Notes: generated by a model not told the origin, from the letters alone. A DNA stretch of 58,136 nucleotides, filler included, from a bacterium (GCA_013360215.1; 4 parts of 4 records of this genome joined end to end with filler, not necessarily neighbours in it), one strand, 5' to 3'. Positions 1 through 15,894 are shown, counted from the whole stretch's first letter. Numbers and translations are program-made.

Positions 1-280
<280 letters not shown>

Positions 281-314
281 TCTTAATTATCCTTCCATAA
301 CTCCTTTCACAGGT

Positions 315-352
315 AACAAAAATCCCCGGCCAATCGGTCGGGGTTTTTGTTT
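315..352. terminator. Intrinsic terminator, probably bidirectional
   Basis: AACAAAAA-TCCCCGGCC-aatc-GGTCGGGG-TTTTTGTT between converging ssb and fic. Confidence 0.8.
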
Positions 353-525
353 ATTGATGACGAAAATAGATGGCAAATGTTAATCCCTTCGCCTTTGGAA
401 GCGGTACATCGCGCCCGGCAAACAAGACGAGGACTGTGGCGAAAAGTCAGCGGCGTGGAGAGGGTACAACAAGCGCGGGATATATTTTAAGAGTAAAGTT
501 TGTGATGGTTGAAGAGTATTTTCTT

Positions 526-1437
526 TTAATCGTTTTCTTCGTAGTAATACGAATAGTCAATTCCTTTCATAAACATTTCCCTATCATTGATTTTGGTTGT
601 TAATGCTTTTTTTAAAAGCTTTTTAAGCGCATCGTTTTTTGTCGGGCTTTGCATCATGGCGTTCATATAGTCGCGTTTACTTATTTGGCTCCAATCTACA
701 CATTTTTTGAGACGCTTTTTTAAAATCAAATCCAGCCAGATTCGGGCGCTACGACCATTGCCTTCCATGAAAGGGTGTGCAATGTTCATTTCTATATCTT
801 TATTTACTATGTCGTCAAAAGTAGTTTCGGGCATTTTTTCTATTTGTTTTAAAGTTTCACCTAAAAAACCTGAAACGGCAAATCGGAAACCGCTTTTTGA
901 AATGTTTTTTTTTCGGATTTGTCCTGCGAATTCATACAAGCCGCCAAACAGATAAGCATGTATCTGTTGCAATCCCTTGGTGGTGCCTACTTCTATGCTG
1001 TTGATGAAAGAGCTTTCAAAAAGGGCATAGGCCTTGGTTTTACTTTTTCCGTCTATACTTTCATTACTGTACGTAAACCATTCGATAAACCGGTTGGCTC
1101 TTGTTCCGGGAAAAGTTTTTCCTAAGGCTATGATACCGTTATAGTCAAGCATGTCAGACATGCGTTTTTTGCCATCCGGTGCCAGTAATTTCAACTGGGT
1201 AGTGGCACTAACCACTTGACTACGCTCTTTTTTGAGCTTGGCTTTCAGGTATTTCCAGTAGTTACGAGCTTTGGTATAATCATCTTGATCGGTAAGCACC
1301 GCCACAATATCTAACACTGAAAACCACCACTTAGCATTTTGTTCGTCCCATACGGCTCGCACTTCACGGTCATTAAAAAAACGTATGGATATTTTGGCAG
1401 TGCTCATAATACGCGTTTGTATATTAACTTTATTCAA
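526..1437 (-). CDS. fic: Fic-family adenylyltransferase with N-terminal BRO/antirepressor-like domain (likely start 1407)
   Basis: [12 protein letters not shown] Fic motif; N-terminus [26 protein letters not shown]. Confidence 0.85.
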
Positions 1438-1508
1438 GTTGCCTTGTAATTCAATGATTCAATGCCGGCAGAACTTTTCATTTTCTCGCAGCCTTCAACT
1501 TTCCTCGG

Positions 1509-1946
1509 CTATATCTGTCCTTTGTATCTTGCATCAAAATCTACCATCCACTCGATTCCATATTTGTCTCTAAACATACCAAAATAGGAACCCCAAGGAC
1601 TGTCAGAAATAGGCATTTCAATTTGTCCACCCTCCGAAAGCCCATGGAATATTTTGTCGGCTTCTTCTTTGCTTTCTGCGCTGACTACAATTTTGCTTCG
1701 ATTCTCATTTTCGTTAGTCCGTCCCAATATTTCGGGTACATCATTGGCCATTAATATACTTTTACCGATCGGTAAAGCGATGTGCATTATTTTATTGGCC
1801 TCATGTTCGGCGACCGGAAAGTCAGCGCTGGCCAAATCTTTGAAGCGAATTATTTTTGCGAACTCGCCGCCAAATACGGATTTGTAAAAATTGAAAGCTT
1901 CTTCCGCATTGCCGTTGAAATTGATGTGGGGATTGATACTCGCCAT
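1509..1946 (-). CDS. VOC/PhnB-like (glyoxalase superfamily) protein
   Basis: PHINFNGNAEEAFNFYKSVFGG...PWGSYFGMFRDKYGIEW. Confidence 0.88.
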   Translation of the reverse strand: MASINPHINFNGNAEEAFNFYKSVFGGEFAKIIRFKDLASADFPVAEHEANKIMHIALPIGKSILMANDVPEILGRTNENENRSKIVVSAESKEEADKIFHGLSEGGQIEMPISDSPWGSYFGMFRDKYGIEWMVDFDARYKGQI

Positions 1947-1977
1947 ACCGGTAACTCTTTCAGTTGATTTAACTTTT

Positions 1978-2104
1978 TAACGTTGAAGCCAAAAATTTTC
2001 ATACTTGGTGGCAGGGGACTCCGGGCTATCCCGCAAACTTCCGGGATACAAAGTGCCAAGTTTCCACGTCAGTCCGTCGGGTACAAAACCCGTGTTATGG
2101 GGCG
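1978..2104 (-). mobile_element. Degenerate attC-like site downstream of the KOW gene
   Basis: Minus strand CGCCCCATAAC-ACGGGTTTTG..., with the R''-like TAAC overlapping the stop codon; distal half eroded. Confidence 0.4.
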
Positions 2105-2304
2105 TTTTTTTTGTTCTTTACGACTTCCACATTTCTGCCAAGGGTCTTAAATCTAACACCATTACTTTGCAAAACAGTGATAGTAATGTGTCCCGTTTTA
2201 CTGGTATTCAGATCTTGCACAATGCCGGCTTTTCCCTTATGTGTGCCACCGATGACAATACAGGAGTCTCCGTTTTTTAGTTTTTTGGTTTTGGTATTGT
2301 CCAT
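2095..2304 (-). CDS. Small KOW-motif RNA-binding protein
   Basis: LKNGDSCIVIGGTHKGKAGIV KOW motif. Confidence 0.75.
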   Translation of the reverse strand: MDNTKTKKLKNGDSCIVIGGTHKGKAGIVQDLNTSKTGHITITVLQSNGVRFKTLGRNVEVVKNKKNAP

Positions 2305-2400
2305 AGTATGCGCTTTCGATGTTTCATTATAAATAATGGGAAATCGTAGAGTACAATTCCGTCGTACCGAAAAGATATGCGGATGAAAAAAAAGGGTGGA

Positions 2401-3990
2401 TTAACACACCTTAAAAAACTTCTTGTTGCTCTCCGCTTGGTTCTTTTCGAGCGTCGCTTCTATTTTTTTGGCGGTTTTGGTGATAGCCAGGCCGCCCAGT
2501 CCGGTACACCGCAATGTATTGGGTATGGCGTCGCCCACCTTTTTCATGGTTTCAATTACTTCGTCCAATGGAATAAGGTGATTATAGTTGGACAAGGCCA
2601 TATTGGCGCAGGACAATGCGTTGGTCGCGGCCATGACGTTTCTATTCAAGCAGGGCGCTTCCACGCGGTCGGCGATCATGTCGCAAATCATGCCTAAAGA
2701 CGACTGCAACGCCATCGAAGAAGCCGCCAGCGCCTGATCGAGCGTGCCTTTTTTTATTCCCACGATACCGGCCGCCGCCATGCCTGATCCGGATCCGCAT
2801 TCGGCCATACAGCCGCCCACCTCGGCCGCAAACGTAGCATGCGCCGCAATAAATACGCCTATGATACCGGCCGCCAGCATCGCTTTTACCATCTCGTCTT
2901 GCGAAAGATGGAGCGCATCGCTCAAACCGATAACAGCCCCGGGTAATGCGCCGCACGATCCCGCTGTAGGGGCCGCCACGACCACGCCCATCGAACTTTT
3001 CACTTCCATCATGGCCGACGTGTATAGTATCACCCGGTTTAATACATCGCCTTCGATCAACTTCTTGTCCTTCATCTGCTGTTGAAATTCTACAGATTGT
3101 GCGCCTAATATACGATCGGCGTAGGTCGTTCCTTTTAGGCCAAGAGCAATGGCGTTTTGCATGATCTCTACGATGGCACGCATTTTTTCAAAAACTTCCT
3201 GCCTCGTGATATTACCGCGCATGCTTTCATAGTCAACGGCCAGTTCCCACAATTCCAGGTTTTTTCCTTTGTTATACGCCAGCATTTCTTCGCATGTGAT
3301 AAAAGGAACGGTTAAGTCTTTTCGGGACATCACCGGCAGGACCGGATTCAGTTTTTTTATAAAAAGCACATCGTCTATGGATTGCAATTCGCGACAGAGC
3401 TGATCGGGGAGAAACTGATTGGATTTGATTTCGATGAAAGTAGATTTTCCTTTTCGCAATCCGATCTCATCGCATGGAAACGATTTTTCGATGAACGAAA
3501 TAATCTCGCCGGGCGACTTCACGTAAACAAGCGTTTGATAAAAGTCTCCGGCCATGCGGACTTGCGCGCCATCGATCTCTATGACTTCGATCATTCCGCC
3601 GCCGGTAGAGATGGCGGTGAGTTCCCTTGTTTCAGACGCATTGCTTAATGTTATTTTGTACGTATTGGGGTGGGTAGCGCCGATGGGATGAATCGCGATC
3701 TTTATGTCTATGCCGGCTTCATCTACGGCCTGCTGATAGTCGGGTAGGCGTTCCTCATAGGCTTCCCATCCCAGAAATCCGCCAAACAACCCCATATCCG
3801 AACCTTGCCCTTTGTGCGTGGTTGCGAGCGAGCCGTCGGGATCAAATTCGATATAAACTTCCCGGATATCACCGTCCATAAGGTCACGGCCTATGCGGCC
3901 TATCCGCAGCGACGCGGCACAATGCGAACTGGATGGTCCTCGCATGACCGGACCGATGACATCGTTGAAAATACTGGGATAGGTTTTCAT
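2401..3990 (-). CDS. sdaA: Fe-S-dependent L-serine dehydratase, fused beta+alpha subunits
   Basis: SIFNDVIGPVMRGPSSSHC (beta); APTAGSCG, AEVGGCMAE, ICD..VEAPC (alpha). Confidence 0.88.
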   Translation of the reverse strand: MKTYPSIFNDVIGPVMRGPSSSHCAASLRIGRIGRDLMDGDIREVYIEFDPDGSLATTHKGQGSDMGLFGGFLGWEAYEERLPDYQQAVDEAGIDIKIAIHPIGATHPNTYKITLSNASETRELTAISTGGGMIEVIEIDGAQVRMAGDFYQTLVYVKSPGEIISFIEKSFPCDEIGLRKGKSTFIEIKSNQFLPDQLCRELQSIDDVLFIKKLNPVLPVMSRKDLTVPFITCEEMLAYNKGKNLELWELAVDYESMRGNITRQEVFEKMRAIVEIMQNAIALGLKGTTYADRILGAQSVEFQQQMKDKKLIEGDVLNRVILYTSAMMEVKSSMGVVVAAPTAGSCGALPGAVIGLSDALHLSQDEMVKAMLAAGIIGVFIAAHATFAAEVGGCMAECGSGSGMAAAGIVGIKKGTLDQALAASSMALQSSLGMICDMIADRVEAPCLNRNVMAATNALSCANMALSNYNHLIPLDEVIETMKKVGDAIPNTLRCTGLGGLAITKTAKKIEATLEKNQAESNKKFFKVC

Positions 3991-4242
3991 CGTTGTTTTT
4001 TCATTCTTAGTTTATATCCGGTAGCATGATGGGACGGCCTCACCGCACGGTGTAAGCTTCTGATTTTTTCATGGAAAATAAGCCGTGAGGGGTTACAAAT
4101 AGTCACATAATGTGGGAACTAAAACCCCATTTGTCAATTGAATTTTCAAAAGAATAGAGCGGCCTCGTAGGAGGCTGACGAAATCATAGGCCTTAGAAAC
4201 GCTTTGTGGCTTGCCGGAGTGGGGGATTGCGGGATTGAATCT

Positions 4243-4698
4243 TTAATTTCGACTAATTAGAGTAGAATGGAGATGTTTTACCTTCCATTGATTTTTTTGG
4301 TTTTCTAAAAATACTGATTCAAGCCATTGTATGGTAGTTTGTTTGCTGTCTTTGGTGATTGTTGACTTGAGTCGGTATGTTACCCATGCTGTATGGGTAT
4401 CTGTTTCGGTGTTGATGAATTCAAAAGTATTGGTACGATTAAAATCGGGATCGGTATTCCTGGTGATGGCTTTATGGATCAAGGTGTCAATATTCCAAAC
4501 CTGTCCGTATTCATACAAAGTAATGTCGGCAGTGCAATGGGCTTTAAGATTTACCGAATCTCGTTTTGATAAAGCTTCAAACATTTTTACAACGGTTTGC
4601 TGAACTTCTTGCCGGTCTTTTGTCAATAGTTGTTGTGCCTGCAAAAATGTCGCAAGAGAAGCTGTAATGAGTAGAAGAAATGCTTTTTTCAATATCAT
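4243..4698 (-). CDS. Secreted NTF2-like/DUF4440 protein
   Basis: Signal peptide; VQQTVVKMFEAL...WLESVFL..WKVKHLHST. Confidence 0.7.
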   Translation of the reverse strand: MILKKAFLLLITASLATFLQAQQLLTKDRQEVQQTVVKMFEALSKRDSVNLKAHCTADITLYEYGQVWNIDTLIHKAITRNTDPDFNRTNTFEFINTETDTHTAWVTYRLKSTITKDSKQTTIQWLESVFLENQKNQWKVKHLHSTLISRN

Positions 4699-4744
4699 TG
4701 ATTTATTTCTTGGTTATCAAAAATTGTGAGGCGTCCGAATGTAT

Positions 4745-4885
4745 AGCAGCCAATGTTTTCCGGCTTGGCGTTCGGGAGGAAATTCGGAGCACAAAAGTTC
4801 AATCGAAGAACTGCACCTGAATCTGCCACAAAACTGTCATACGAAGCACTGTACCCGCGATTGCGCCAAACCGCTGTTACCAGCT
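4745..4885 (-). mobile_element. attC-like recombination site (~140 bp) downstream of hsdR
   Basis: Minus strand: R''-like GGTAAC, inner arms CGGTTTGGCG/CGCCAAGCCG, R'-like ATTGGCTGC (GTT changed to ATT). Confidence 0.6.
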
Positions 4886-4966
4886 ACTCTTCTTTTCTGT
4901 CGTATTGTTCTCTGTTCATGTTGATGTGTCTTGGTGCGTTGGCTGTATGTGTTTGTTGTCCTGTCA

Positions 4967-7375
4967 TTACGCTGCTTTCTGTTTGTAAAGATGTTCTTGA
5001 AATTCTATAAACAGTCTGCTGATGTTTGCCACGTCTCCCAAAATTTCTTTTGCGTCTTCCAATGATTGATACTTGTTAGTCAGCAAGATTGGTAATTTTT
5101 CTTGGTCGAGTTCGTCCACGCCTGTTTCAATGTATTTACTCAAAACGAACGTGATAAACTCTTTTTGTTTGTCGTTGAGTAAGGCAAAAATTGTCGCTTC
5201 TGCTGCTTTGGCTCTTGCTTCTCTTGTCATTGCGATATAGTCGCCATTAAAAACGTATTCCAACACATCATACAAGTCGCTTTTTTCCATATCTACCAAC
5301 TTTTGTAAAGTCAGTAAATCGTCTTTCGGGAAACCTGCTGATTCCAAATTCTCCAACAAAACTTTTCGGGTAATTGGATTGCTCCAAATTTTTCGCAATT
5401 CTTCTTCGTCTTTGAAAAGCTTAGGCAATTCACCAAACAAATTATTCAAAAATTCTTCTGCTGAAATGGGTTTGCCGTCTGCACTCCAAAACGAAGTGGA
5501 AACCATATGTTGGATTTCTCGCTCTTTGCCGTTTTTCAGTTTGATTTTTACTTTTTTCTTGCAAACACATGGTATCTGACCACATTTTTCACAAGGTTTT
5601 GGTGGTTCTATTATGCAAATACAAGGTCTTTCTCCGCAAATGGGGCAATGTTCTGGTGGAACGTATTCGCACTCACACGGATTTTGTCCGCACTTTTTGC
5701 ACGGTTCTTCTTCCAAAGGCTCTCCGTCCCATTCGGGGTCTGAAAAGTGTTTGTAGGCATCAACAAAGTCGTAAATGGTAAAAAACTCTTTGCCGTCAAA
5801 CAAACGTGTGCCACGCCCAACGATTTGTTTAAACTCAATCATTGAGTTGACAGGACGAAGCAAAACGATATTCCGAATGTTCCTTGCATCAACTCCCGTA
5901 GAAAGTTTTTGCGAAGTAGTCAGAATAGTTGGGATTGTTTTTTCGTTGTCCTTAAATTCACGCAACAGTCTTTCACCTTCTTCTCCATCATTGGCAGTAA
6001 CACGAACACAATAAAACGGGTCTTTACTTTTTGCGTTTTGGTTTACCAAATCTCTAATCAAAGCTGCGTGTCCTTGATTGGCACAAAAGATTATTGCCTT
6101 TTCGTTTTGGTTGGCTTCATCTAAAAAGATATTTACCCGTTTGGCTTCTCGTTCTACAATTTCAATGGTGCGGTTAAAGTCTTTTTCTTCATACAACTTG
6201 CCTTCTTCAATTTCGCCTTCCACAATCGTGTCGTCCGAAGTGTAGCGGTAATCGTCCAAAGTGGTTTTGATGCGTTTTACTTTGAAAGGCGTTAAAAAGC
6301 CGTCATTGATGCCTTCTTTCAGCGAATAGATGTAAACAGGTTCACCAAAGTATTTGTAAGTATCAACATTGTCTTTTCGCTTGGGTGTTGCGGTTAAACC
6401 CAATTGCACTGCCGGACTGAAATATTCTAAAATGCTTCGCCAATTGCTTTCGTCATTTGCTCCGCCACGGTGGCACTCGTCAATGATGATAAAATCAAAA
6501 TAGTCGGCTGGATATTCGCCAAAGTAGGGTGTAGGCTTTCCTTCTGCATCCGTGCCACTCATAAAGGTTTGAAAAATGGTAAAGAAAATACTGCCGTTGG
6601 TCGGCACTTTTCCGTTTTTCTTTATCTCGTTGGGTTTTATCCGAACTAAAGCATCTTCGGGAAATGCTGAAAATGAATTGTAGGCTTGGTCGGCTAATAT
6701 GTTTCTGTCGGCTAAAAATAAAATTCTCGGTCTTCGGTTGCCGTCTCGTTTTAAGTTCCAACGGGTTTGAAAAAGTTTCCAAGCTATTTGAAAAGCGATT
6801 GCCGTTTTTCCTGTTCCTGTGGCAAGGGTGAGTAAAATTCTTTCTTTGCTTTGTGCAATGGCTTCAACGGTTCGTTGAACGGCTATTTCCTGATAATATC
6901 TTAACTGCCAACTTCCGCTTTTGTCTTCAAATGGAACATTAGCAAACTTTTCTCGCCACACTTCGACAAGCTCAGTGTTCGAGCTTTTTGGGTAGGTTTT
7001 ATTCCAAAGTTCCTCAGGGCTTAGAAAATCTGTTACCAAACCTTCTTTGCCTGTTATCATACAGATTTGGTAAATGGCTTTTCCGTTGGTGCTGTATGTG
7101 GTTTCTAATTTTAATTTCTCCGCATATTTCTTGGCTTGCATTACGCCTTCGCCAACTTCCAATTCATCACTTTTAGCTTCAACCACTGCCAACTTGATGC
7201 CTTTGTAAACCAACACATAATCGGCAATTTCTCTTTTGCCCCTGCCACCACCTGTTTGAATTTTACCTGCCGTTATGTTGTATTCACGAAGGACTTTAGA
7301 ACCTTCCACAACGCCCCAACCGCAAGCTATTAGCTTTGGGTCTATGAGTTCTGCTCTTGTTTCTGCTTCGTTCAT
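4967..7375 (-). CDS. hsdR: Type I restriction endonuclease subunit R (EcoAI/EcoEI-like)
   Basis: ADYVL..VVEAK nuclease motif, ATGTGKT, DECH, LTATP, QIVGRGTR; next to hsdS and hsdM. Confidence 0.93.
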   Translation of the reverse strand: MNEAETRAELIDPKLIACGWGVVEGSKVLREYNITAGKIQTGGGRGKREIADYVLVYKGIKLAVVEAKSDELEVGEGVMQAKKYAEKLKLETTYSTNGKAIYQICMITGKEGLVTDFLSPEELWNKTYPKSSNTELVEVWREKFANVPFEDKSGSWQLRYYQEIAVQRTVEAIAQSKERILLTLATGTGKTAIAFQIAWKLFQTRWNLKRDGNRRPRILFLADRNILADQAYNSFSAFPEDALVRIKPNEIKKNGKVPTNGSIFFTIFQTFMSGTDAEGKPTPYFGEYPADYFDFIIIDECHRGGANDESNWRSILEYFSPAVQLGLTATPKRKDNVDTYKYFGEPVYIYSLKEGINDGFLTPFKVKRIKTTLDDYRYTSDDTIVEGEIEEGKLYEEKDFNRTIEIVEREAKRVNIFLDEANQNEKAIIFCANQGHAALIRDLVNQNAKSKDPFYCVRVTANDGEEGERLLREFKDNEKTIPTILTTSQKLSTGVDARNIRNIVLLRPVNSMIEFKQIVGRGTRLFDGKEFFTIYDFVDAYKHFSDPEWDGEPLEEEPCKKCGQNPCECEYVPPEHCPICGERPCICIIEPPKPCEKCGQIPCVCKKKVKIKLKNGKEREIQHMVSTSFWSADGKPISAEEFLNNLFGELPKLFKDEEELRKIWSNPITRKVLLENLESAGFPKDDLLTLQKLVDMEKSDLYDVLEYVFNGDYIAMTREARAKAAEATIFALLNDKQKEFITFVLSKYIETGVDELDQEKLPILLTNKYQSLEDAKEILGDVANISRLFIEFQEHLYKQKAA
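6958..6978 (+). repeat. Bulged-hairpin element, in-frame inside hsdR
   Basis: ACACT-TC-GA-CAAGC-TC-AGTGT. Confidence 0.75.
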
Positions 7376-7387
7376 AATTTCTCTTTT

Positions 7388-7539
7388 ATCAAATGACCAT
7401 CAAATAAAATCGGTCTGCCAATCACATAACCATCACATAATAAAGCGTTGATTATCAAAGATTTGAATTGGATATTGGCGCCACCTATCACATAGCCATC
7501 ACATAAGAATTCTGAGGTAGTCAAATAACCATCAAATAA
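7388..7539. repeat. Four 20-bp direct repeats (consensus ATCAMATAACCATCAMATAA) in 11-bp register
   Basis: Copies at 7388, 7421, 7487 and 7520; all offsets are multiples of 33. Confidence 0.85.
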
Positions 7540-7543
7540 GGAT

Positions 7544-8989
7544 TTAAGCCCAAAATGGTATGTAGCTGGCATATTTTCTTGATTTACTGTCTGGGTCATC
7601 TTCTTTAATTACTTTATCATCAATGGCATCTCGAATAATGCGGGAAGCAATTGAATAGTTATGGTCTTCAATTTTGAATCTTTCTCTTAAGCTTTGATTG
7701 GTCATTTTCTCGTTTGATACATATTTCAAACAAGCGTGTTGATAGCAAGCTCTGATTTTTTCTTTTTTATCTAATTCATTCAAAGTTTTATAACAATACA
7801 TTGTAACACGAGTTCTATTCTCTGCAACTACCACATTGATGGCAGGCAGTTGATACAATTCATTGTAAAAAATAACCTTGTCTAATCCACTGCCTTTTTC
7901 TTCGCAAAAACCCATTCTTCGCATAAGGTCTGCTAATTTTTCATTGCGTGATAAGTAAGCATCAATAAATCGGTCGGGTGTAACCAAAGGCGTTCCAGGA
8001 TTAGATATTTCAATTCTGTCAGTAAAAATCTCAACCATTGGAAAACCTTTTTCGGTCAAATCCTGATGGATAAGAGCATTAGCAACTAATTCTCTGATGG
8101 CGATTTCAGGATACATTCGGGTTTCTTTTCTCAATGCTTTTCCTATTTCTTCATTTGCAGGCAATTGGCTGTTTATCCAATTTACTAAACCTTCAAAACC
8201 TAAAGCATAACCTTTGGCTCCAATTTGCTCCCGCTCTGTTTCAACTTTGTTTTTGACCTTGTAAACGATAACACGAACTGATTTTCGTTCCACGCTTTCA
8301 AAATCTTTTAACTGCTTAGCAAAAAGCAAAGCCCCTAATTTGGTAATTGCATAACCATTATTCTTTACTACTAAACCTTCATCCATAAACTTATCAATTA
8401 CGCCTTGCTGATTAGAAGGATACGGCAGTTTCAACAAGTCAAAATAAGCTTCAGTGCTTAGATACTTGGTGATATCCGATGCACTCAGATTGTCTTTTGC
8501 AATTTCTTTTTCAAATGGTATAGTATCCTTGTTCCAGATTTTAGCTTGTTTCTGTGGAAACTCATTCAACTTTCTGGTGATGCTGCTCACACGGATGTAT
8601 GCCTTATGCAGAAATTCAACGGGCTGGTTTTTAGTAGCAGGGATTACATAGATAGAGATGTGTCGGTTTGCGTCATAATCAAACTCATAAACTGCAAAAT
8701 CAATTCTTGGATTTAATCGGGTAAGCAACCAATGCTCTAAATCCTCATTTCCTTTTTTGGCGGTTTTAGCTTTGAAGGTTGTTCCTTTAATAATTTGAGT
8801 TTTGTCTTCTACACCGAAAATCAAATAACCAAATGGCTGATTGTGAATACAAGCACCGTTCGATAAAGCTGAAATACACTCTCCAATTTCTTCTGCTGAA
8901 TGAAAATTGAGTTTGAACTCCACCCATTCACTTTCGTGTGGCTGTTTTACAAGCTCGTTTAATAATTCTATCAATTGTTGTTCATTCAT
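7544..8989 (-). CDS. AlbA_2/Schlafen-like DNA-binding protein with HATPase_c_4 and C-terminal wHTH
   Basis: ESEWVEFK, ISALSN..GYLIFGV, AIRELVANALIHQD, RNEKLADLM..GFCEEKGSG. Confidence 0.85.
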   Translation of the reverse strand: MNEQQLIELLNELVKQPHESEWVEFKLNFHSAEEIGECISALSNGACIHNQPFGYLIFGVEDKTQIIKGTTFKAKTAKKGNEDLEHWLLTRLNPRIDFAVYEFDYDANRHISIYVIPATKNQPVEFLHKAYIRVSSITRKLNEFPQKQAKIWNKDTIPFEKEIAKDNLSASDITKYLSTEAYFDLLKLPYPSNQQGVIDKFMDEGLVVKNNGYAITKLGALLFAKQLKDFESVERKSVRVIVYKVKNKVETEREQIGAKGYALGFEGLVNWINSQLPANEEIGKALRKETRMYPEIAIRELVANALIHQDLTEKGFPMVEIFTDRIEISNPGTPLVTPDRFIDAYLSRNEKLADLMRRMGFCEEKGSGLDKVIFYNELYQLPAINVVVAENRTRVTMYCYKTLNELDKKEKIRACYQHACLKYVSNEKMTNQSLRERFKIEDHNYSIASRIIRDAIDDKVIKEDDPDSKSRKYASYIPFWA

Positions 8990-10146
8990 ACCGCAACTGC
9001 TTTTTCAGTTTTTAGTTCGACAGGCTCACCACCACGCAATTCCCCCGCAAATGCCTTTTGCAAGATGGATTTTTTCAGTTCTTCCAAATCCTCTATTTTC
9101 TTTTGATACACCGCTTCCAACTTTTGCGTTTCGGCCCGCAGGGCATCTAATTGGCGGACGATAGTTTGTTGTTCTTCAATGGAAGGAATTGGAATTGGAA
9201 TTTTATTTAGCATTGCCTGATTTAATTTGGGCTGTGCCATTCCGCTTACATAATCATCTATTCTAATTGAGTTGATATAAACTTCAACAAATTTTTGAGT
9301 GACGGTATTTGGAAACTTCAAAACGTGTGTGTGATTATTTACCCAAGTTTTTCCTGAAATTGAAAAAGCAATCGGATAGGTTCTTGTTAAAAGGTTTGCA
9401 CCATCTTCTGAAACACAAAGTAAATCTTCATTAAAAAGGTAGTCGGCTACGTAATCAACGATTCCTGATGCACCATAATAAGGTATATCTCCGCTTTTCC
9501 TTTGGTTTTTGGTAATCGGAACCCTTTTACTGTCGAGATTTTCCGAAATCTGATTTAATGTTTTTGTTTCCCAATTTCCATTCTCAAACAACCCCTGCAA
9601 ATAACTTTCAAAAAGTTCTTTGGCGTTTTTGAGGTTTTTTATGGCGGCATTTCGACTTCGCTCAATGACCTCAAAGGCTTCATCTAATATGGAAACTATG
9701 CGTTGTTGTTCGGGGAGAGGGGGAAGAGGGATTGGAATTTTATTCAGCATTGCCTGATTTAATTTAGGTTGTGCCATTCCACTCACATAGTCATCAACTC
9801 TAATTGAGTTCAAATAAAGTTCAATAAATTTTTGTGTGTTGAAATTTTTAAAACGTAAGACGTGTGCGTGATTGTTTACCCAAGTTTTACCTGAAATTGA
9901 AAATGCAATTGGATATGTTCTTGCTAATAGATTTGCCCCATCTTCCGAGACACACAGTAAATCTTCATCAAAAATGTAATCAGAAACATAATCAACTATT
10001 CCAGAAGCTCCGTAATAAGGTATATCTCCTTTTGTTCTTTTGCTTTGAGTTATAGGTATTCGTTTACTATCTAAGTTTTCACAAACTTCCCCCAACTTCT
10101 TTATTTCCCAACCCTTCGGCAGGCTCAGTGTATCACCTTGCTTCAC
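8986..10146 (-). CDS. hsdS: Type I R-M specificity subunit with two near-identical TRDs
   Basis: W..K.L, IPIPLPPLPEQQRIV and IPIPIPSIEEQQTIV, SILQKAFAGEL. Confidence 0.93.
   Translation of the reverse strand: MKQGDTLSLPKGWEIKKLGEVCENLDSKRIPITQSKRTKGDIPYYGASGIVDYVSDYIFDEDLLCVSEDGANLLARTYPIAFSISGKTWVNNHAHVLRFKNFNTQKFIELYLNSIRVDDYVSGMAQPKLNQAMLNKIPIPLPPLPEQQRIVSILDEAFEVIERSRNAAIKNLKNAKELFESYLQGLFENGNWETKTLNQISENLDSKRVPITKNQRKSGDIPYYGASGIVDYVADYLFNEDLLCVSEDGANLLTRTYPIAFSISGKTWVNNHTHVLKFPNTVTQKFVEVYINSIRIDDYVSGMAQPKLNQAMLNKIPIPIPSIEEQQTIVRQLDALRAETQKLEAVYQKKIEDLEELKKSILQKAFAGELRGGEPVELKTEKAVAV
9015..9029 (+). repeat. Bulged-hairpin element at the hsdS 3' end
   Basis: GT-TC-GA-CAGGC-TC-AC. Confidence 0.65.
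10112..10130 (+). repeat. Degenerate bulged-hairpin element at the hsdS 5' end
   Basis: CCCT-TC-GG-CAGGC-TC-AGTG. Confidence 0.6.
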
Positions 10147-10173
10147 AACAGTTCCAAAATTGAGTAAGTAATA

Positions 10174-10252
10174 TCGTTGCCTTCGAGTACCTCAGGCAAC
10201 GAGAGCCTCAGGCATCGGGCATTATCGGTGGTTGAGGTTCTCGAAACCACCG
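10174..10252. repeat. Inverted pair of bulged-hairpin elements plus a partial copy, downstream of the GIY-YIG gene
   Basis: TCGTTGCCT-TC-GAG-TAC-CTC-AGGCAACGA (10174-10202, +) and CGGTGGTT-TC-GAG-AAC-CTC-AACCACCG (10226-10252, -). Confidence 0.8.
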
Positions 10253-10270
10253 TATGTAAGTTCTGTTTAT

Positions 10271-10561
10271 TCATTTAATATCTCTATAGGCTTTTGACAA
10301 GTCGGGTAACTTCTCTGTTTGTGAATTAATCAATGCTTCTTTTTTTCTCCTGCTCCAGCCTTGTACTTGTTTCTCTCTGTAAAAGGCCTCGTCAATTCGT
10401 TGAAACTCTTCAAAATAAACCAACTTAACGGGTAGTCGTTTTTTGGTATGGTTTGCCCCTTCTCCTTCTTGGTGTTGTGCCAACCTTAACTCCAGATTAT
10501 TGGTACTTCCGGTGTAATAACTACCATCAGCACATTCCAAAATATACATCCATCCGTTCAT
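10271..10561 (-). CDS. Stand-alone GIY-YIG nuclease (UPF0213/YhbQ-like)
   Basis: WMYILECADGSYYTGSTNNLELRLAQH..GANHT..RLPVKLVY..AFYREKQVQGWSRRKK. Confidence 0.9.
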   Translation of the reverse strand: MNGWMYILECADGSYYTGSTNNLELRLAQHQEGEGANHTKKRLPVKLVYFEEFQRIDEAFYREKQVQGWSRRKKEALINSQTEKLPDLSKAYRDIK

Positions 10562-12036
10562 ATCAAATCTGCAATTCCTTTCAGTATTTCAGCACTTTCT
10601 TCGTCCAATGCTTTCATTTCTTCCAAAATCTCGTGTGGTGAGCGCAGTCGAACCACTTCCTTTTTATTCGGGTTTTTTACGCTCAAATCAAAAGTGTTTT
10701 GGTCAATGTCTTTCACATTTACCGTCCAAGAGTTTTCACTATCGGCAAAGTTTTTTTGTAGTTCCACAAACTCCGCCAAATCGTTTTCATTCAATGGATT
10801 TGTCTTTCCTAAATTGCGGTCGAGGCTCAACTGGTAAAACCAAACCTTTTGTGTGGCTTTGCCTTTTTCAAAAAACAACACTACGGTTTTTACGCCTGCA
10901 CCAGTAAAGGTGCCACCGGGCAAATCCAACACGGTATGCAGATTGCAATTTTCTAACAAGGTTTTGCGTATGGCAACGGTGGCATTATCGGTATTGCTCA
11001 AAAACGTGTTTTTAATAACCACACCTGCCTTGCCACCTGCTTTCAAAATTTTAATAAAGTGCTGCAAAAACAGCGAAGCGGTTTCGCCTGTTTTGATGGG
11101 GAAGTTTTGTTGCACTTCGGCACGTTCCTTTCCACCAAATGGCGGATTGGCAAGCACCACATCATAGCGGTCTTTTTCCTGTATGTCGGCAAGGTTTTCA
11201 GCAAGCGTGTTGGTGTGTATGATGTTGGGCGCTTCCACACCGTGCAAAATCATATTCATTATGCCAATGATATACGCCAATGATTTTTTCTCTTTGCCGT
11301 AAAAGGTGCGTTTTTGCAGTATCTCGGTTTCTTTGGTAGAAAGTCCCTGCCCTGAGCCTGTCGAAGGGGATTTGCTGTTTCGCAAGTAATCGAACGCTTC
11401 GCAAAGGAATCCTGCACTACCAACAGCACCGTCATAAATTTTGTTGCCAATTTTAGGGTCAACCACTTTTACAATGGTGGTAATGAGCGGTCGGGGGGTA
11501 TAGTATTCGCCACCGTTTCGCCCCGCATTGCCCATATTTTTGATTTTGTCTTCATACAAATGGCTCATTTCGTGCTTCTCTGCGTGGGTGCGGAAACGCA
11601 ACTCGTCAATGCGGTTAATCACTTCACGCAAATTGTAGCCGCTTTGTATGCGGTTTTTCAGTTCACTGAAAATCTCACCAATCTTGTATTCAATGGTGTC
11701 GGCACTTTCGGCACTCGTCTTAAACTTTTTCAGGTAAGGAAAGAGTTTGTTGTTTACAAAGTCGGTAAGATCGTCACCTGTCAGGGCTTTGTGGTAGTCC
11801 AGTTTTCCGTCTTTGCCTTTTGGCATTGCCCAAGCTGTCCATTGGTATTTTTTATCAATGATAGGCGTGTAGGTCTTGCCTGTAAGTTCAGCAGCTGTGG
11901 CTCGGTCTTTCTCCAAGTCGTCCAAATATTTAAGGAACAAAATCCAAGAGGTTTGCTCCACATAATCCAATTCACTGCCGCAACCTGCGTCTTTGTGAAG
12001 AATATCGTCTATATTTTTAAAGGTTTGTTCGAACAT
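10558..12036 (-). CDS. hsdM: Type I R-M N6-adenine methyltransferase subunit
   Basis: GEYYTPR, DGAVGSAGFL (motif I), NPPF (motif IV). Confidence 0.93.
   Translation of the reverse strand: MFEQTFKNIDDILHKDAGCGSELDYVEQTSWILFLKYLDDLEKDRATAAELTGKTYTPIIDKKYQWTAWAMPKGKDGKLDYHKALTGDDLTDFVNNKLFPYLKKFKTSAESADTIEYKIGEIFSELKNRIQSGYNLREVINRIDELRFRTHAEKHEMSHLYEDKIKNMGNAGRNGGEYYTPRPLITTIVKVVDPKIGNKIYDGAVGSAGFLCEAFDYLRNSKSPSTGSGQGLSTKETEILQKRTFYGKEKKSLAYIIGIMNMILHGVEAPNIIHTNTLAENLADIQEKDRYDVVLANPPFGGKERAEVQQNFPIKTGETASLFLQHFIKILKAGGKAGVVIKNTFLSNTDNATVAIRKTLLENCNLHTVLDLPGGTFTGAGVKTVVLFFEKGKATQKVWFYQLSLDRNLGKTNPLNENDLAEFVELQKNFADSENSWTVNVKDIDQNTFDLSVKNPNKKEVVRLRSPHEILEEMKALDEESAEILKGIADLI
10635..10656 (-). 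repeat. Bulged-hairpin element in the hsdM 3' end, upstream of the GIY-YIG gene
   Basis: Minus strand GTGGT-TC-GA-CTGCGC-TC-ACCAC. Confidence 0.75.
11350..11368 (-). repeat. Bulged-hairpin element, in-frame inside hsdM (encodes PSTGSG)
   Basis: Minus strand CCCT-TC-GA-CAGGC-TC-AGGG. Confidence 0.8.
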
Positions 12037-12174
12037 TATTTATCTCTGTTTTTATCAATTTGTAAAGTTATCATTCTTGTCTGTGCGTAGGCAAAAAAAT
12101 GGCTCTTTTGGTTTTTGCGAAGGGTCGGCTTGTGTGTCAGGCAAAACCAAATGTACCACTTTTGGGGAGGTACT

Positions 12175-12937
12175 GTTATAGGGCGTTTTTCTTGTCATTT
12201 GTAATAATAATACCAATTGCTTTCGTAGTTTTTGTCAAAATTTTCTTTACTGTCCAAATAAACCTGAATGTCAGTTCTTTTGAAATAATTGAACTCGTCA
12301 AATGGTTTTACTAAGTCAAAGTATTTGTCTGCCCAATTCTTTTTAATTTCAGGCTTGTCATATTCTTTAACTTTCTCGTCTGTAAACAAAAAAAAAGTTG
12401 GAATAGTAAAACCGATAGATATTGTCCAAATATCTTTGTTATCAAACGACTTAATAAATTCTTCTGTCTTGTTTTGATTTATTTTATATGTCGCTTCTAG
12501 TTTTGCAATTGGCTCAAATGCACCATAAGCCACAAAAACATCGTCCGTTAAATAAATTCCGTTCTTTGTTATTTCCGAATATATTTGAAAAGGAACCGTT
12601 ATTTTTTGAAAGTCCTTGTAGCTTAATTATCTCAGTAAATTTTTCTCCAATTGCTTTTTGTTTCGATTTGTCAAAATATGAAATGTCGTGAGTCAAGAAT
12701 TTGTTTTTCTCTTTTTCATATTCAAAGCAAATTTGAATTCTTGGTGTTTTATTGTCCACTGTGTCGTAAATAATATTAATCGTTTTTACGTCAAACGTTT
12801 TGTCAATCCACTCCGCAAGAGGAGCAAACTCGGGCTTCATCCTTTCTGTCCCAAGGATTATTCGCTTTGTTTGAGTGTACTCTTTGTCAGAAGGTAATAT
12901 CATTTTGTTGTTGTCGTCTTTTGAAATGCCCTATAAC
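12175..12937 (-). mobile_element. Gene-cassette-like unit bounded by a perfect GTTATAGGGC/GCCCTATAAC inverted pair; its attC-like site is truncated
   Basis: Minus strand begins GTTATAGGGC (12937-12928) before the ORF and has GCCCTATAAC (12184-12175) just after the stop. Confidence 0.6.
12195..12903 (-). pseudogene. Frameshifted hypothetical cassette gene (ORFs 12514-12903 and 12195-12533)
   Basis: Two overlapping same-strand ORFs fill one cassette; the frame change is near 12555. Confidence 0.6.
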
Positions 12938-13169
12938 TAGTTTATAGCCCTGATTTTTTCATCCTTATCCAGTAAATATTAGATAGATAAAGATGGTTTT
13001 AGGGATTTCTATTATGTTATGTTAGAATGTGCGAGAAAAATTAATAAAGAAAAGATGCGCTTAATCTCTCAGGTACGAACGGCATTTATTTCCCTGTGCC
13101 GTCTTCCGCTGATACCGTACGAAAAAATATATAGCCAATTTATGGAATTGGCTATATTTATTTTTATTT

Positions 13170-13291
13170 GTGCTTATCGGGAAAACTCCTATACGTCATG
13201 GTGCGTGGGGGACCCGGTTTAGTACCCTCCGTCTTCGACTTTGCTCAAGACGGAAGGGTTCTCTTTCATCGGTGAGCCAACCCGATAAACA
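13170..13291. ncRNA. Candidate structured RNA or DNA element (three-way junction) that contains a bulged-hairpin copy
   Basis: Closing stem TGCTTATCGGG/CCCGATAAACA; inner stems CTCCTATACG/CGTGGGGG and CCGGT/ATCGG; hairpin at 13224-13259. Confidence 0.35.
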
Positions 13292-13329
13292 CGTTTCCAT
13301 TTGATAAAAAAATTTAAAACACCGCTGAT

Positions 13330-15411
13330 CTACCAGATGCTGACCCGTTCGTTTTCGGGTCTGTACATCGCGTCGCCGGGCTTGATACCAAAAACTTCGT
13401 AAAACTTGACATTATTGGAAAGGGGACCGATGACGCGGTGCTGTGCCGGTGCGTGTACGTCGGACATGATGCGGCTGGCGAGCATTTCCGGGCGCATCTG
13501 GATCATCCATGCGTACGCGTACGCGAGGAAATACCTTTCGTCGGGCGTCAGACCGGCTACTTTTTGATTGTTTTTGTATTGGGCAGAGCGTTTGAAAGCA
13601 TCGTAGCCCAGTTCTACGCCGCCGAGATCGGCGATGTTTTCGCCCAGCGTCGCTTCGCCGCGCAGGTGCATGCTGTCGAGCACCACGTAGTTATTAAACT
13701 GCGTCACCAGCATTTTGGTTTTGGCTTCAAAACGGGCGCGGTCTTCTTTGGTCCACCAGTTATTCAGTTTGCCCGTTTCGTCGTATTGGCTGCCCTGATC
13801 ATCGAAGCCGTGTATGATCTCATGACCAAACGTGCTGCCGCCGATAATACCGTATAAGATCGCATCGTCGGGCATCGTTTTACCAAAACCCGGGACGATG
13901 ATATTGGCGGCGGGTACCACGATTTCGTTATTGGTCGGATCGTAATACGCATTATACGTTTGCGGGGTGATATTCCACTCCGTGCGATCTACGGGTTTAC
14001 CGTATTTGCCGATCATGAAGTCAAATTCATACACATTGGCGCGCATCACATTGGCAACATAGGTGTCCCGTTCGACGGACAGACGGCTGTAGTCGCGCCA
14101 TTGGTCGGGGTGTCCGACTTTCATCGCCATCGTTTGCAGTTTGAGCAAAGCGCGCTCACGTGTCGCGTCACTCATCCAGCTTACTTTTTCGATACGTTCG
14201 CGGCATACGTCGCGGATATTATTTCCGATTTCGAGTAATTTTTCTTTGGTACCCTTGGGTAGATATTCCTCTACATAGACCTGGCCGATGACTTCACCCA
14301 AAGCGCGATTGGTGCGTTCGACGACGCGTTTCCAGCGCGGTTTCATTTGTTTGACGCCGTACAGGGTCTTGGAATAAAAATTAAAATTTTCGTCCACCAG
14401 CGCTTGATTGAGGTAAGCGGCATACGTGCCGATCACACTCCACCGCAGATAGGCTTTCCATGCGTCCAGAGAAGTATTTTTGACGGCGTTTTCCACTTCT
14501 TTAAAAAATTCCGGTTGTCCTACGATCACGGAATCTACGTTTTTCAGGCCGGTGTTTTGGAAAAAGACATTCCAGTCAAACGACGGGGTGAGTTTGGAAA
14601 GTTCGGCGACACTCATTTTGTTATAGTTGGCATACGGATCGCGCAGGCCTTCGAGCGTACGGCTGGCTTTGGCTAAGTTTTTTTCCAAAGCGAAAATATG
14701 ATCGGCGAAAGCGCGCGCTTGGTCGGGCGTTTCTCCGATGATTTCAAAATTGCGAAACAAATGTTTTTGATACGCTGCACGAATGCCGGTGGTGCGTTCG
14801 TCGTTTTTGAAATAATAGTCACGATCCGGCAAACCCAGTCCGCCTTGATTGAGCGCGACGGCGTATTCGGTCGGTTTTTTATCGTCTTTGTAGATATTAA
14901 ATGAAAAAATCGGATCGCCGTTGATCTGATGCAGGCGTGCGGCTACCGCAGCCAAGTCGCTCATGGACTTCATGGCGTCAATGCGATCCAGTTCCGATTT
15001 TAAGGGCGTGATACCGGCTTTTTCCGATGCGGCGCTATCCATACCGCTGGCGTAAAAATCACCGATTTTCTGTTTATTGCTGCCTTTGGGCGCTTTGGCT
15101 TCTTGCGCGGATTTTTCGCAGATCTCCCGTACGGCGGTGCGTGTCTCTTCGCCGATCGTCAGCCACAATCCGTTGGAGGATTCCGACTCAGGAATAGGAT
15201 TGCGTTTGAACCAGCCGCCATTGGCATGCAGGAAAAAATCTTGGCCGGGGGTGACCGAGCTGTCGCGGTTATTTACCAGCGGATCGGGGAGTGTTTCGAC
15301 GTTTTGGGGTGCACAACCCAGATACATAACCGTGCAGACTATCGCAATAAAAAAACATGAACGTAACATGGTAAAGGGTGCCTTTCTGTATTCAGTATGC
15401 TTACAACGCAT
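13330..15411 (-). CDS. pepO: M13-family (neprilysin/PepO) metalloendopeptidase lipoprotein (likely start 15369)
   Basis: YNAYY, GHEIIHGFDDQG, GENIADLGG, DVHAP; lipobox YLGC. Confidence 0.92.
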   Translation of the reverse strand: MRCKHTEYRKAPFTMLRSCFFIAIVCTVMYLGCAPQNVETLPDPLVNNRDSSVTPGQDFFLHANGGWFKRNPIPESESSNGLWLTIGEETRTAVREICEKSAQEAKAPKGSNKQKIGDFYASGMDSAASEKAGITPLKSELDRIDAMKSMSDLAAVAARLHQINGDPIFSFNIYKDDKKPTEYAVALNQGGLGLPDRDYYFKNDERTTGIRAAYQKHLFRNFEIIGETPDQARAFADHIFALEKNLAKASRTLEGLRDPYANYNKMSVAELSKLTPSFDWNVFFQNTGLKNVDSVIVGQPEFFKEVENAVKNTSLDAWKAYLRWSVIGTYAAYLNQALVDENFNFYSKTLYGVKQMKPRWKRVVERTNRALGEVIGQVYVEEYLPKGTKEKLLEIGNNIRDVCRERIEKVSWMSDATRERALLKLQTMAMKVGHPDQWRDYSRLSVERDTYVANVMRANVYEFDFMIGKYGKPVDRTEWNITPQTYNAYYDPTNNEIVVPAANIIVPGFGKTMPDDAILYGIIGGSTFGHEIIHGFDDQGSQYDETGKLNNWWTKEDRARFEAKTKMLVTQFNNYVVLDSMHLRGEATLGENIADLGGVELGYDAFKRSAQYKNNQKVAGLTPDERYFLAYAYAWMIQMRPEMLASRIMSDVHAPAQHRVIGPLSNNVKFYEVFGIKPGDAMYRPENERVSIW

Positions 15412-15768
15412 AAAAATTAACAGGTTTTAGTAATAAATCAATCCGTATTACGAGGATTAGCGGTCTATCATAAAAATCGAAAAAAGATACGCAAAGCCGA
15501 AGTAAAGGTTACAGGATGTATCGGCTCAGAGCATAGAGGATTAGCCGGAGCGGCTTGTGAATATTTAGTACCCCAAAATGCTAAACGTGCGGTGATAAAC
15601 GGTAAAATCAAAAAAAACGAGGATGGGGCAAATATTGTCAAAAATTGACAGAAAAGAGCCGTCAGCTGACTATAAATTGATCATGTTACGATGATGGAAA
15701 TGATACAAAAAATGAAACGAAAAAGAATTTACTAATAACACATAAAAACAAAACAAGGAGAACAAGTC

Positions 15769-15894
15769 ATGAACAAAGGAAGTCTGAATCGCGCCGTATT
15801 GATCGGTCGTCTGGGCCGTGATCCGCAGGTACGCTATACGCCTACGGGAACGCCGATCACGTCGTTTAGCGTAGCGACGACGCAGGTATTTAAA
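15769..15894 (+). CDS. ssb: Single-stranded DNA-binding protein, N-terminal part (3' end cut by contig edge; absent from ORF track)
   Basis: AAGGAG RBS, then MNKGSLNRAVLIGRLGRDPQVRYTPTGTPITSFSVATTQVFK. Confidence 0.9.

Follow-up and report, generated by a model that had tools for sequence, protein, structure and literature searches.

What is a gene for a small GIY-YIG nuclease doing inside a type I restriction-modification (R-M) operon, and why do hairpins of one recognisable form crowd around it and recur, in frame, within the genes of the operon itself? The question is raised by a window, the whole stretch of DNA analysed here, of 58,136 nucleotides from a bacterial genome (GCA_013360215.1; 3.72 Mb, 56 contigs, 44.8% G+C), in which four contigs are joined by runs of N and positions 1-15894 are the whole of contig C29 (15.9 kb). 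An earlier note on the window had described eight hairpins sharing a core around this gene, and had proposed a system resembling that of repetitive extragenic palindromic (REP) elements and the REP-associated tyrosine transposases (RAYTs), in which the GIY-YIG enzyme would nick or propagate the repeats. In kind the idea has been anticipated: Chenal et al. (2025; PMC11893778) describe single-domain GIY-YIG nucleases, termed Ssn, that are flanked by hairpin repeats (the Ssn/SRM system), and draw the same comparison with REP and IS200 elements. The evidence set out below makes it likely that the window carries a nuclease-plus-hairpin module of the Ssn kind, belonging to another branch of the GIY-YIG family and inserted at the junction of hsdM and hsdS. 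The insertion of a cassette, the linkage of hairpins to nuclease across phyla, the match between nuclease tail and hairpin subtype, the covariation of the stems, and the in-frame insertions and patches in coding sequence are all observed.

Hairpins linked to a GIY-YIG gene

Contig C29, scanned for the core TCG[AG]N3-5CTC with a perfect flanking stem of 4 bp or longer, yields six hairpins, three on the plus strand (6958-6978, 9648-9667 and 10174-10202) and three on the minus strand (10226-10252, 10635-10656 and 11350-11368). The same scan returns no hairpin from the window's three further contigs, as the earlier note had stated, and 300 shuffles of the contig gave a mean of 0.04 hairpins and a maximum of 1. 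Three looser copies accompany the six: 13228-13254 has an 8-bp stem but the first T of its core is paired, the copy at 10112 retains the core with an imperfect stem (three of four pairs), and that at 9015 is a decayed copy in which the core is enclosed by a stem of only 2 bp. Five of the eight hairpins originally listed are exactly as described and the remaining three are these looser copies, of which the one given as 13224-13259 is real apart from its paired core T; the list also missed a ninth copy, 9648-9667, which lies in hsdS. Across the whole genome the N4-5 core yields 21 hairpins from 1207 core matches, against 2-8 for permuted control cores, and 25 hairpins with a stem of at least 4 bp are listed when the core is widened to N3-6.

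The form of the hairpin was derived from 148 distinct copies, picked at random from 282 and selected by their 11-nt core alone. Their consensus is nnnGGTGnCT-TCGAGAGCCTC-AGnCACCGnn. Each hairpin of the cassette described below combines a stem of some 5-10 bp with a TC left unpaired on its 5' side, a GA:TC step and only a minimal loop at the apex. Among the 148 copies the proposed pairs form in 77.8% of cells, compared with 27-45% when the partners are slid, and the observed covariation score was reached by none of 500 shuffles. The hairpin is therefore real, and so is the covariation on which the earlier note had relied; however, its view that shape rather than sequence is conserved goes too far, as the stems are not free but share the consensus GGTGNCT / AGNCACC, with covariation chiefly at three positions. 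The apical columns 15:18 covary between G:C and C:G (103 and 38 of the 148 copies, respectively); a base pair is not claimed here, given that there are just two common states and that the pair would enclose 2 nt.

The gene at the centre of the cluster (10271-10561, minus strand) encodes 96 amino acids, confirming the small GIY-YIG protein reported earlier, with a single domain (Pfam PF01541, E 2.8e-19) over residues 3-74 and no other. Its relatives were collected as 80 loci, one per species genome, with nucleases 76-100% identical to the window protein; they come from seven phyla (Bacteroidota, Chloroflexota, Planctomycetota, Spirochaetota, Pseudomonadota, Ignavibacteriota and Fibrobacterota) and, as the closest relatives of one protein, are not independent of each other. 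The 744 kb around them contain 373 hairpins, 291 of which lie no more than 500 bp from the gene, and at least one hairpin is found within 700 bp of it in 79/80 loci, the exception having a masked flank. Typically the gene is bordered on either side by a plus/minus doublet. A stem of at least 4 bp accompanies 300 of 440 core matches in its vicinity, 73 of 288 at a greater distance and, as noted above, 21 of 1207 in the whole genome. The claim that the hairpins belong with the small GIY-YIG gene, and the enrichment near this clade that it implied, are both upheld by these counts.

Within 700 bp of the gene the hairpins are mostly just downstream (201, against 99 upstream), and the reading frame of the nuclease continues into them at many loci. 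Both facts favour an explanation at the level of RNA, in which the hairpins terminate, stabilise or regulate the nuclease transcript and the coding copies are by-products. We nevertheless consider it highly improbable, as the two orientations are about equally frequent on each side of the gene and in coding sequence, there is no T-run, and insertion polymorphism within unrelated genes is unlike cis-regulation. Moreover, a search of the whole window against Rfam at gathering thresholds returned one tRNA and no family for the hairpins. The extended frames deserve mention in their own right: in L004, L006, L016, L018, L054 and other relatives the nuclease gene is without its usual stop and reads through hairpins, giving tails of tens to hundreds of residues (up to 514 amino acids, in L018).

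Hairpin subtypes follow the nuclease tail

The hairpin cores fall into three subtypes, A (TCGAG-NNC-CTC), B (TCGAC-NNG-CTC) and C (TCGRC-NNNG-CTC), and the C-termini of the nucleases likewise fall into three types, A (...AYRD, 48/80), B (...KNY, 17/80) and C (...LAEC.N.TH, 13/80), with two proteins unclassed. The subtype of the hairpin corresponds to the type of the tail for 76 of 83 hairpins upstream (within 300 bp) and 164 of 166 downstream. No such division is seen in the catalytic core, residues 3-74, whose mean identity is 0.808 among nucleases that share a tail type and 0.827 among those that do not, and in some pairs the cores are 97% identical, yet tails and hairpins differ. In a tree of residues 1-74 (79 of the 80 rows, one being too short) the well-supported branches force at least 4, 3 and 3 type changes. 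The window protein, ending ...LSKAYRDIK, is of type A; its AlphaFold2 model has a predicted local distance difference test (pLDDT) score of 84, with a confident core.

The nine copies in the window comprise two of subtype A, four of B and three of C. The only ones that fit the tail of the resident nuclease are the two arms of the inverted doublet at 10174-10252, namely 10174-10202 (plus strand, 9-bp stem) and 10226-10252 (minus strand, 8-bp stem). The earlier note had treated all copies as one family served by the resident enzyme, which does not hold. The contigs of two independent public sequencing runs break within this doublet (10183-10217), probably through an effect of the repeat on assembly. 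Beyond the R-M genes, the looser copy given above as 13228-13254 is an intergenic hairpin resembling subtype C (13225-13258, plus strand), with a long stem in a shifted register.

The genome holds further examples. A gene on contig C14 has type C hairpins around it and encodes a protein that is 49% identical to the window nuclease and ends in a type C tail; its cassette (132800-137200, L166) lies between a 938-amino-acid hsdR and the hsdS of another type I system. At the same locus a 32-nt hairpin sits in frame within the 938-amino-acid hsdR, and downstream of the nuclease gene are about five tandem units of ~47 nt, each with half a hairpin. Separately, an element of ~58 bp with a type C hairpin of 8-bp stem at its centre occurs three times (C10:68822-68849, C49:42006-42033 and C14:136991-137018), in each case intergenic and with conserved flanks.

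Because the hairpins accompany the GIY-YIG gene and their subtype tracks its C-terminal tail, the REP/RAYT analogy drawn in the earlier note is apt. The same resemblance suggests a different explanation, that the hairpins are REP-like repeats or miniature inverted-repeat transposable elements moved by some other enzyme, for example a Y1/HUH transposase, with the GIY-YIG gene as a favoured landing site or a passenger. The genome does have one Y1_Tnp gene (C32:154047-154391), and many hairpins are far from any GIY-YIG gene, including the 73 with stems among far cores and those of 14 of 80 hsdM loci. However, no such hairpin was found near the Y1_Tnp gene or elsewhere on C32, the 148-copy consensus shows neither the GTAG nor the CGTC head of REPs, the subtype corresponds to the GIY-YIG tail, and hairpin and gene remain paired across phyla. 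An origin of this kind is accordingly judged very unlikely.

A cassette and its hairpins in the restriction-modification genes

All genes of interest in C29 lie on the minus strand and were assigned with Pfam. The operon comprises hsdM (10558-12036; 492 amino acids; N6_Mtase, HsdM_N), the nuclease gene, whose start codon overlaps the hsdM stop, hsdS (8986-10146; 386 amino acids with a GTG start; Methylase_S in two stretches), a gene with AlbA_2 and HATPase_c_4 domains that is context only (7544-8989), an open reading frame of 75 amino acids without a family (7372-7599) and hsdR (4967-7375; 802 amino acids, with an EcoEI-type C-terminus). A close hsdM was not found in any of the 14 same-family genomes searched (20 genomes were examined at phylum level, too few for a census), which makes the operon look horizontally acquired. 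The two halves of HsdS are near-duplicates, from which a symmetric recognition sequence is predicted. Residues about 540-625 of HsdR (window about 5500-5760), which follow the helicase part and precede the C-terminal domain of EcoEI type, are cysteine-rich with a repeated C..CG..PC.C pattern.

The extent of the cassette emerges from alignment with hsdM-hsdS junctions that are without it (L085-L088, L092, L096, L087). In loci whose HsdM is 90-93% identical (L084-L088) there is no cassette and hsdS begins at an ATGA overlap with the hsdM stop, whereas here 415 bp (10147-10561, minus strand), consisting of the GIY-YIG gene and the hairpin doublet, are inserted at this overlap just 3' of ATGAA. 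The hsdS gene resumes at GTGAA, so that TGAA is repeated at both junctions.

Single hairpins also lie within the R-M genes, and all in-coding copies keep the frame, as had been claimed. Alignment with homologs, proposed in the earlier note as a check on its 24-nt insertions, shows these at three sites. The first, in hsdM (11344-11367, minus strand), encodes PSTGSGQG and carries the subtype B hairpin 11350-11368; among 121 homologs at least 89% identical, 57 have no insertion and 64 have 3-19 extra residues at this site, in several frames and both orientations. The second, DTLSLPKG at the N-terminus of HsdS (10111-10134, minus strand), is apparent from the junction alignment and has a subtype B core with the imperfect stem mentioned above. 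The third, RGGEPVEL at the HsdS C-terminus (9013-9036, minus strand), has a subtype B core with a decayed stem and is flanked by an EL..EL duplication; five HsdS homologs end ...AG--------ELKTEK... and are without it. In HsdR the segment PKSSNTELVEV (6959-6994, minus strand), which contains the subtype B hairpin 6958-6978, replaces a six-residue stretch for a net gain of 18 nt. Twenty of 30 aligned homologs are shorter here by six amino acids, eight have other insertions, most of them visibly hairpin-derived, and two are too distant to judge. By contrast, the subtype C hairpin encoding VVRLRSPH in the C-terminal part of HsdM (10635-10656, minus strand) is a same-length replacement and not the insertion expected, and so is the previously missed subtype C copy in the conserved central helix of HsdS (9648-9667, plus strand; IERSRN). 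Further same-length patches occur in other loci at two sites of this helix. The type B core (TCGACAGGCTCA), read from its sequence, has a stop in one of the six reading frames only. Target-site duplications are merely hinted at, by TGAA at the cassette, GAAYT at the HsdS C-terminus and GGT at the HsdS N-terminus, and none is clear in the alignment of HsdM site 1. Public contigs from four runs of four studies, over 8900-12100, showed no empty-site form, as none joins across the cassette or a hairpin, although contigs drop rare variants and so carry no information on activity.

The company that the nuclease keeps raises the possibility that the module serves restriction, with hairpins marking the borders of hsdS domains, the nuclease promoting domain exchange or controlling incoming single-stranded DNA, and its place before hsdS being functional. 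HsdS is the downstream neighbour in 24/80 loci and a type I R-M gene the immediate neighbour in 38/80, the HsdR neighbours including families of both EcoEI and EcoR124 type; six more loci have other restriction genes, and the second cassette of this genome is also placed between hsdR and hsdS. Eighteen HsdS genes adjoin the cassette, and among the 17 that are full length the hairpins lie at 0.42-0.51 of the length in ten and at the N-terminus in three; the eighteenth (L001), cut at a contig end, carries the same central copy. The window's HsdS has them in its central helix and at both termini. A public contig (run X11, of a different study) has a near-identical locus in which the second hsdS recognition domain, 9178-9580 (403 letters), is replaced by 394 others. 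Against this, the borders of that swap, 9177 and 9581, are at least 67 nt from the nearest hairpins, and type I systems commonly exchange domains within conserved stretches of hsdS with no need of a hairpin. Furthermore, 42/80 copies have no type I neighbour, the non-independence of the 80 loci bears on all these counts, and since R-M operons are mobile and dispensable, hitch-hiking combined with tolerance could give the same picture. A dedicated role in restriction thus appears unlikely.

A related and quite unlikely suggestion is that nuclease and hairpin together act as a 'writer' of short DNA patches with a tie to restriction systems. Repair of a nick at one hairpin would take another copy as its template, stamping hairpins of 18-24 nt or patches of the same length into nearby genes; the hairpins at hsdS domain borders would be exchange points and the swappable tail a natural specificity module. 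If this were true, exchange at hsdS borders would speed the evolution of new restriction specificities.

For the Ssn-like module that we favour, a mechanism can be sketched. SsnA of Neisseria meningitidis binds its hairpin in single-stranded DNA and cuts beside it, according to the published account (PMC11893778), and by analogy the window nuclease most likely does the same, its flexible C-terminal tail, from about residue 80, probably reading the top of the hairpin. Nicking followed by templated repair or recombination might then spread hairpins to sites close by and carry the cassette from one related operon to another; the nicking and propagation envisaged in the earlier note would be of this kind, by analogy with SsnA. 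Most hairpins in the R-M genes are of subtypes B and C, unfit for the resident type A enzyme, and are probably relics of other nucleases that a mobile operon has encountered, or were made by this genome's second nuclease, of type C.

Several observations weigh against this interpretation. The activity of this GIY-YIG branch is predicted from an analogy of architecture only, as no hairpin in the 80 loci fits the SRM pattern that was published. The copying of hairpins is left unexplained by a GIY-YIG nuclease that works by hydrolysis, since such an enzyme is unable to rejoin DNA. Seven of the nine window copies are of a non-cognate subtype, and the 14 hsdM loci mentioned above have hairpins within hsdM and, in the flank retrieved, no gene of GIY-YIG type. 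Confidence in the modelled tail is low, with pLDDT of 68 and 48 for its last two blocks, and the tree that separates tail from core has 74 columns and many unresolved forks. Finally, the end of the gene that encodes the tail adjoins the downstream hairpins, so that linkage could explain part of the match between them; on this last point, the upstream match (76/83) argues for a functional tie beyond linkage.

Relation to known systems

If correct, the interpretation would bring a second GIY-YIG branch, with a recognition hairpin of another design, under the Ssn concept, which is one year old. The three enzyme/hairpin specificities found in nature, distinguished mainly by a short tail at the C-terminus, would offer a handle on hairpin reading by a 96-residue protein, and perhaps a means of re-targeting it. 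The module also accounts for short odd peptides and length differences in near-identical HsdM, HsdS and HsdR, just as in-frame hairpin-derived stretches lengthen the nuclease reading frame in other loci, and it suggests, in a form open to testing, that modules of this sort may be connected with the way in which type I restriction specificity evolves.

The closest solved relatives by sequence, over residues 1-80, are the UPF0213 proteins BH0048 (PDB 1zg2; E 1.6e-16) and EF2693 (PDB 1ywl; E 2.8e-11), with E 2.2e-22 in the profile comparison; both structures were deposited as hypothetical proteins with no function assigned. NCBIfam has no family for the window protein. REP/RAYT and IS200/IS605 systems are similar in that hairpin repeats, often inverted doublets, cluster at the gene of an enzyme thought to act on single-stranded DNA hairpins. 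They differ in that the partner here is a GIY-YIG hydrolase and not an HUH tyrosine transposase, and in the head motif, described for REPs by Di Nocera et al. (2013; PMC3733652), that these hairpins are without. GIY-YIG homing endonucleases such as I-TevI and Seg have a separate, linker-joined DNA-binding domain that the window protein does not, and TIGR01453 gives no match to it. Rickettsia palindromic elements are palindromic repeats inserted in frame in coding genes, where they add short peptides, but they are much longer than the hairpins here and, to our knowledge, have no established partner enzyme.

Resemblance is greatest to Ssn/SRM, where a single-domain GIY-YIG protein of ~95 amino acids is likewise encoded by a gene with short hairpin repeats on its flanks, further copies being dispersed through the genome, and where the distribution likewise spans phyla. 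Indeed, the published type and the present branch coexist in this genome: two near-identical 95-amino-acid GIY-YIG genes on contig C19 (37417-37638 and 6139-6360; L164, L165) have hairpins of the SRM pattern, which are matched by the same regular expression that fails on the 80 loci. The window protein is 38% identical to these SRM-flanked proteins and nearer to the UPF0213 structures (E 1.6e-16 versus 0.0056). The hairpins differ too, as the conserved part here is the bulge and apical loop and not a 5' GTC tag with a fixed stem, the subtype is set by the loop, and insertions into coding sequence are frequent. For three carrier genomes, Supplementary Data 4 of Chenal et al. (PMC11893778) records NO for tblastn, YES for cd10448 by psiblast, NO for a CDD score >100 and no SRM enrichment, although the flagged protein may be another gene. 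A literature search that included Ssn follow-ups since 2024 and the hairpin-derived peptide strings, with subscription journals outside its scope, found no description of this hairpin or clade among the papers listed. The system is probably of the known Ssn kind, and what differs here is the lineage of the enzyme, the design of the hairpin and the insertions into coding sequence.

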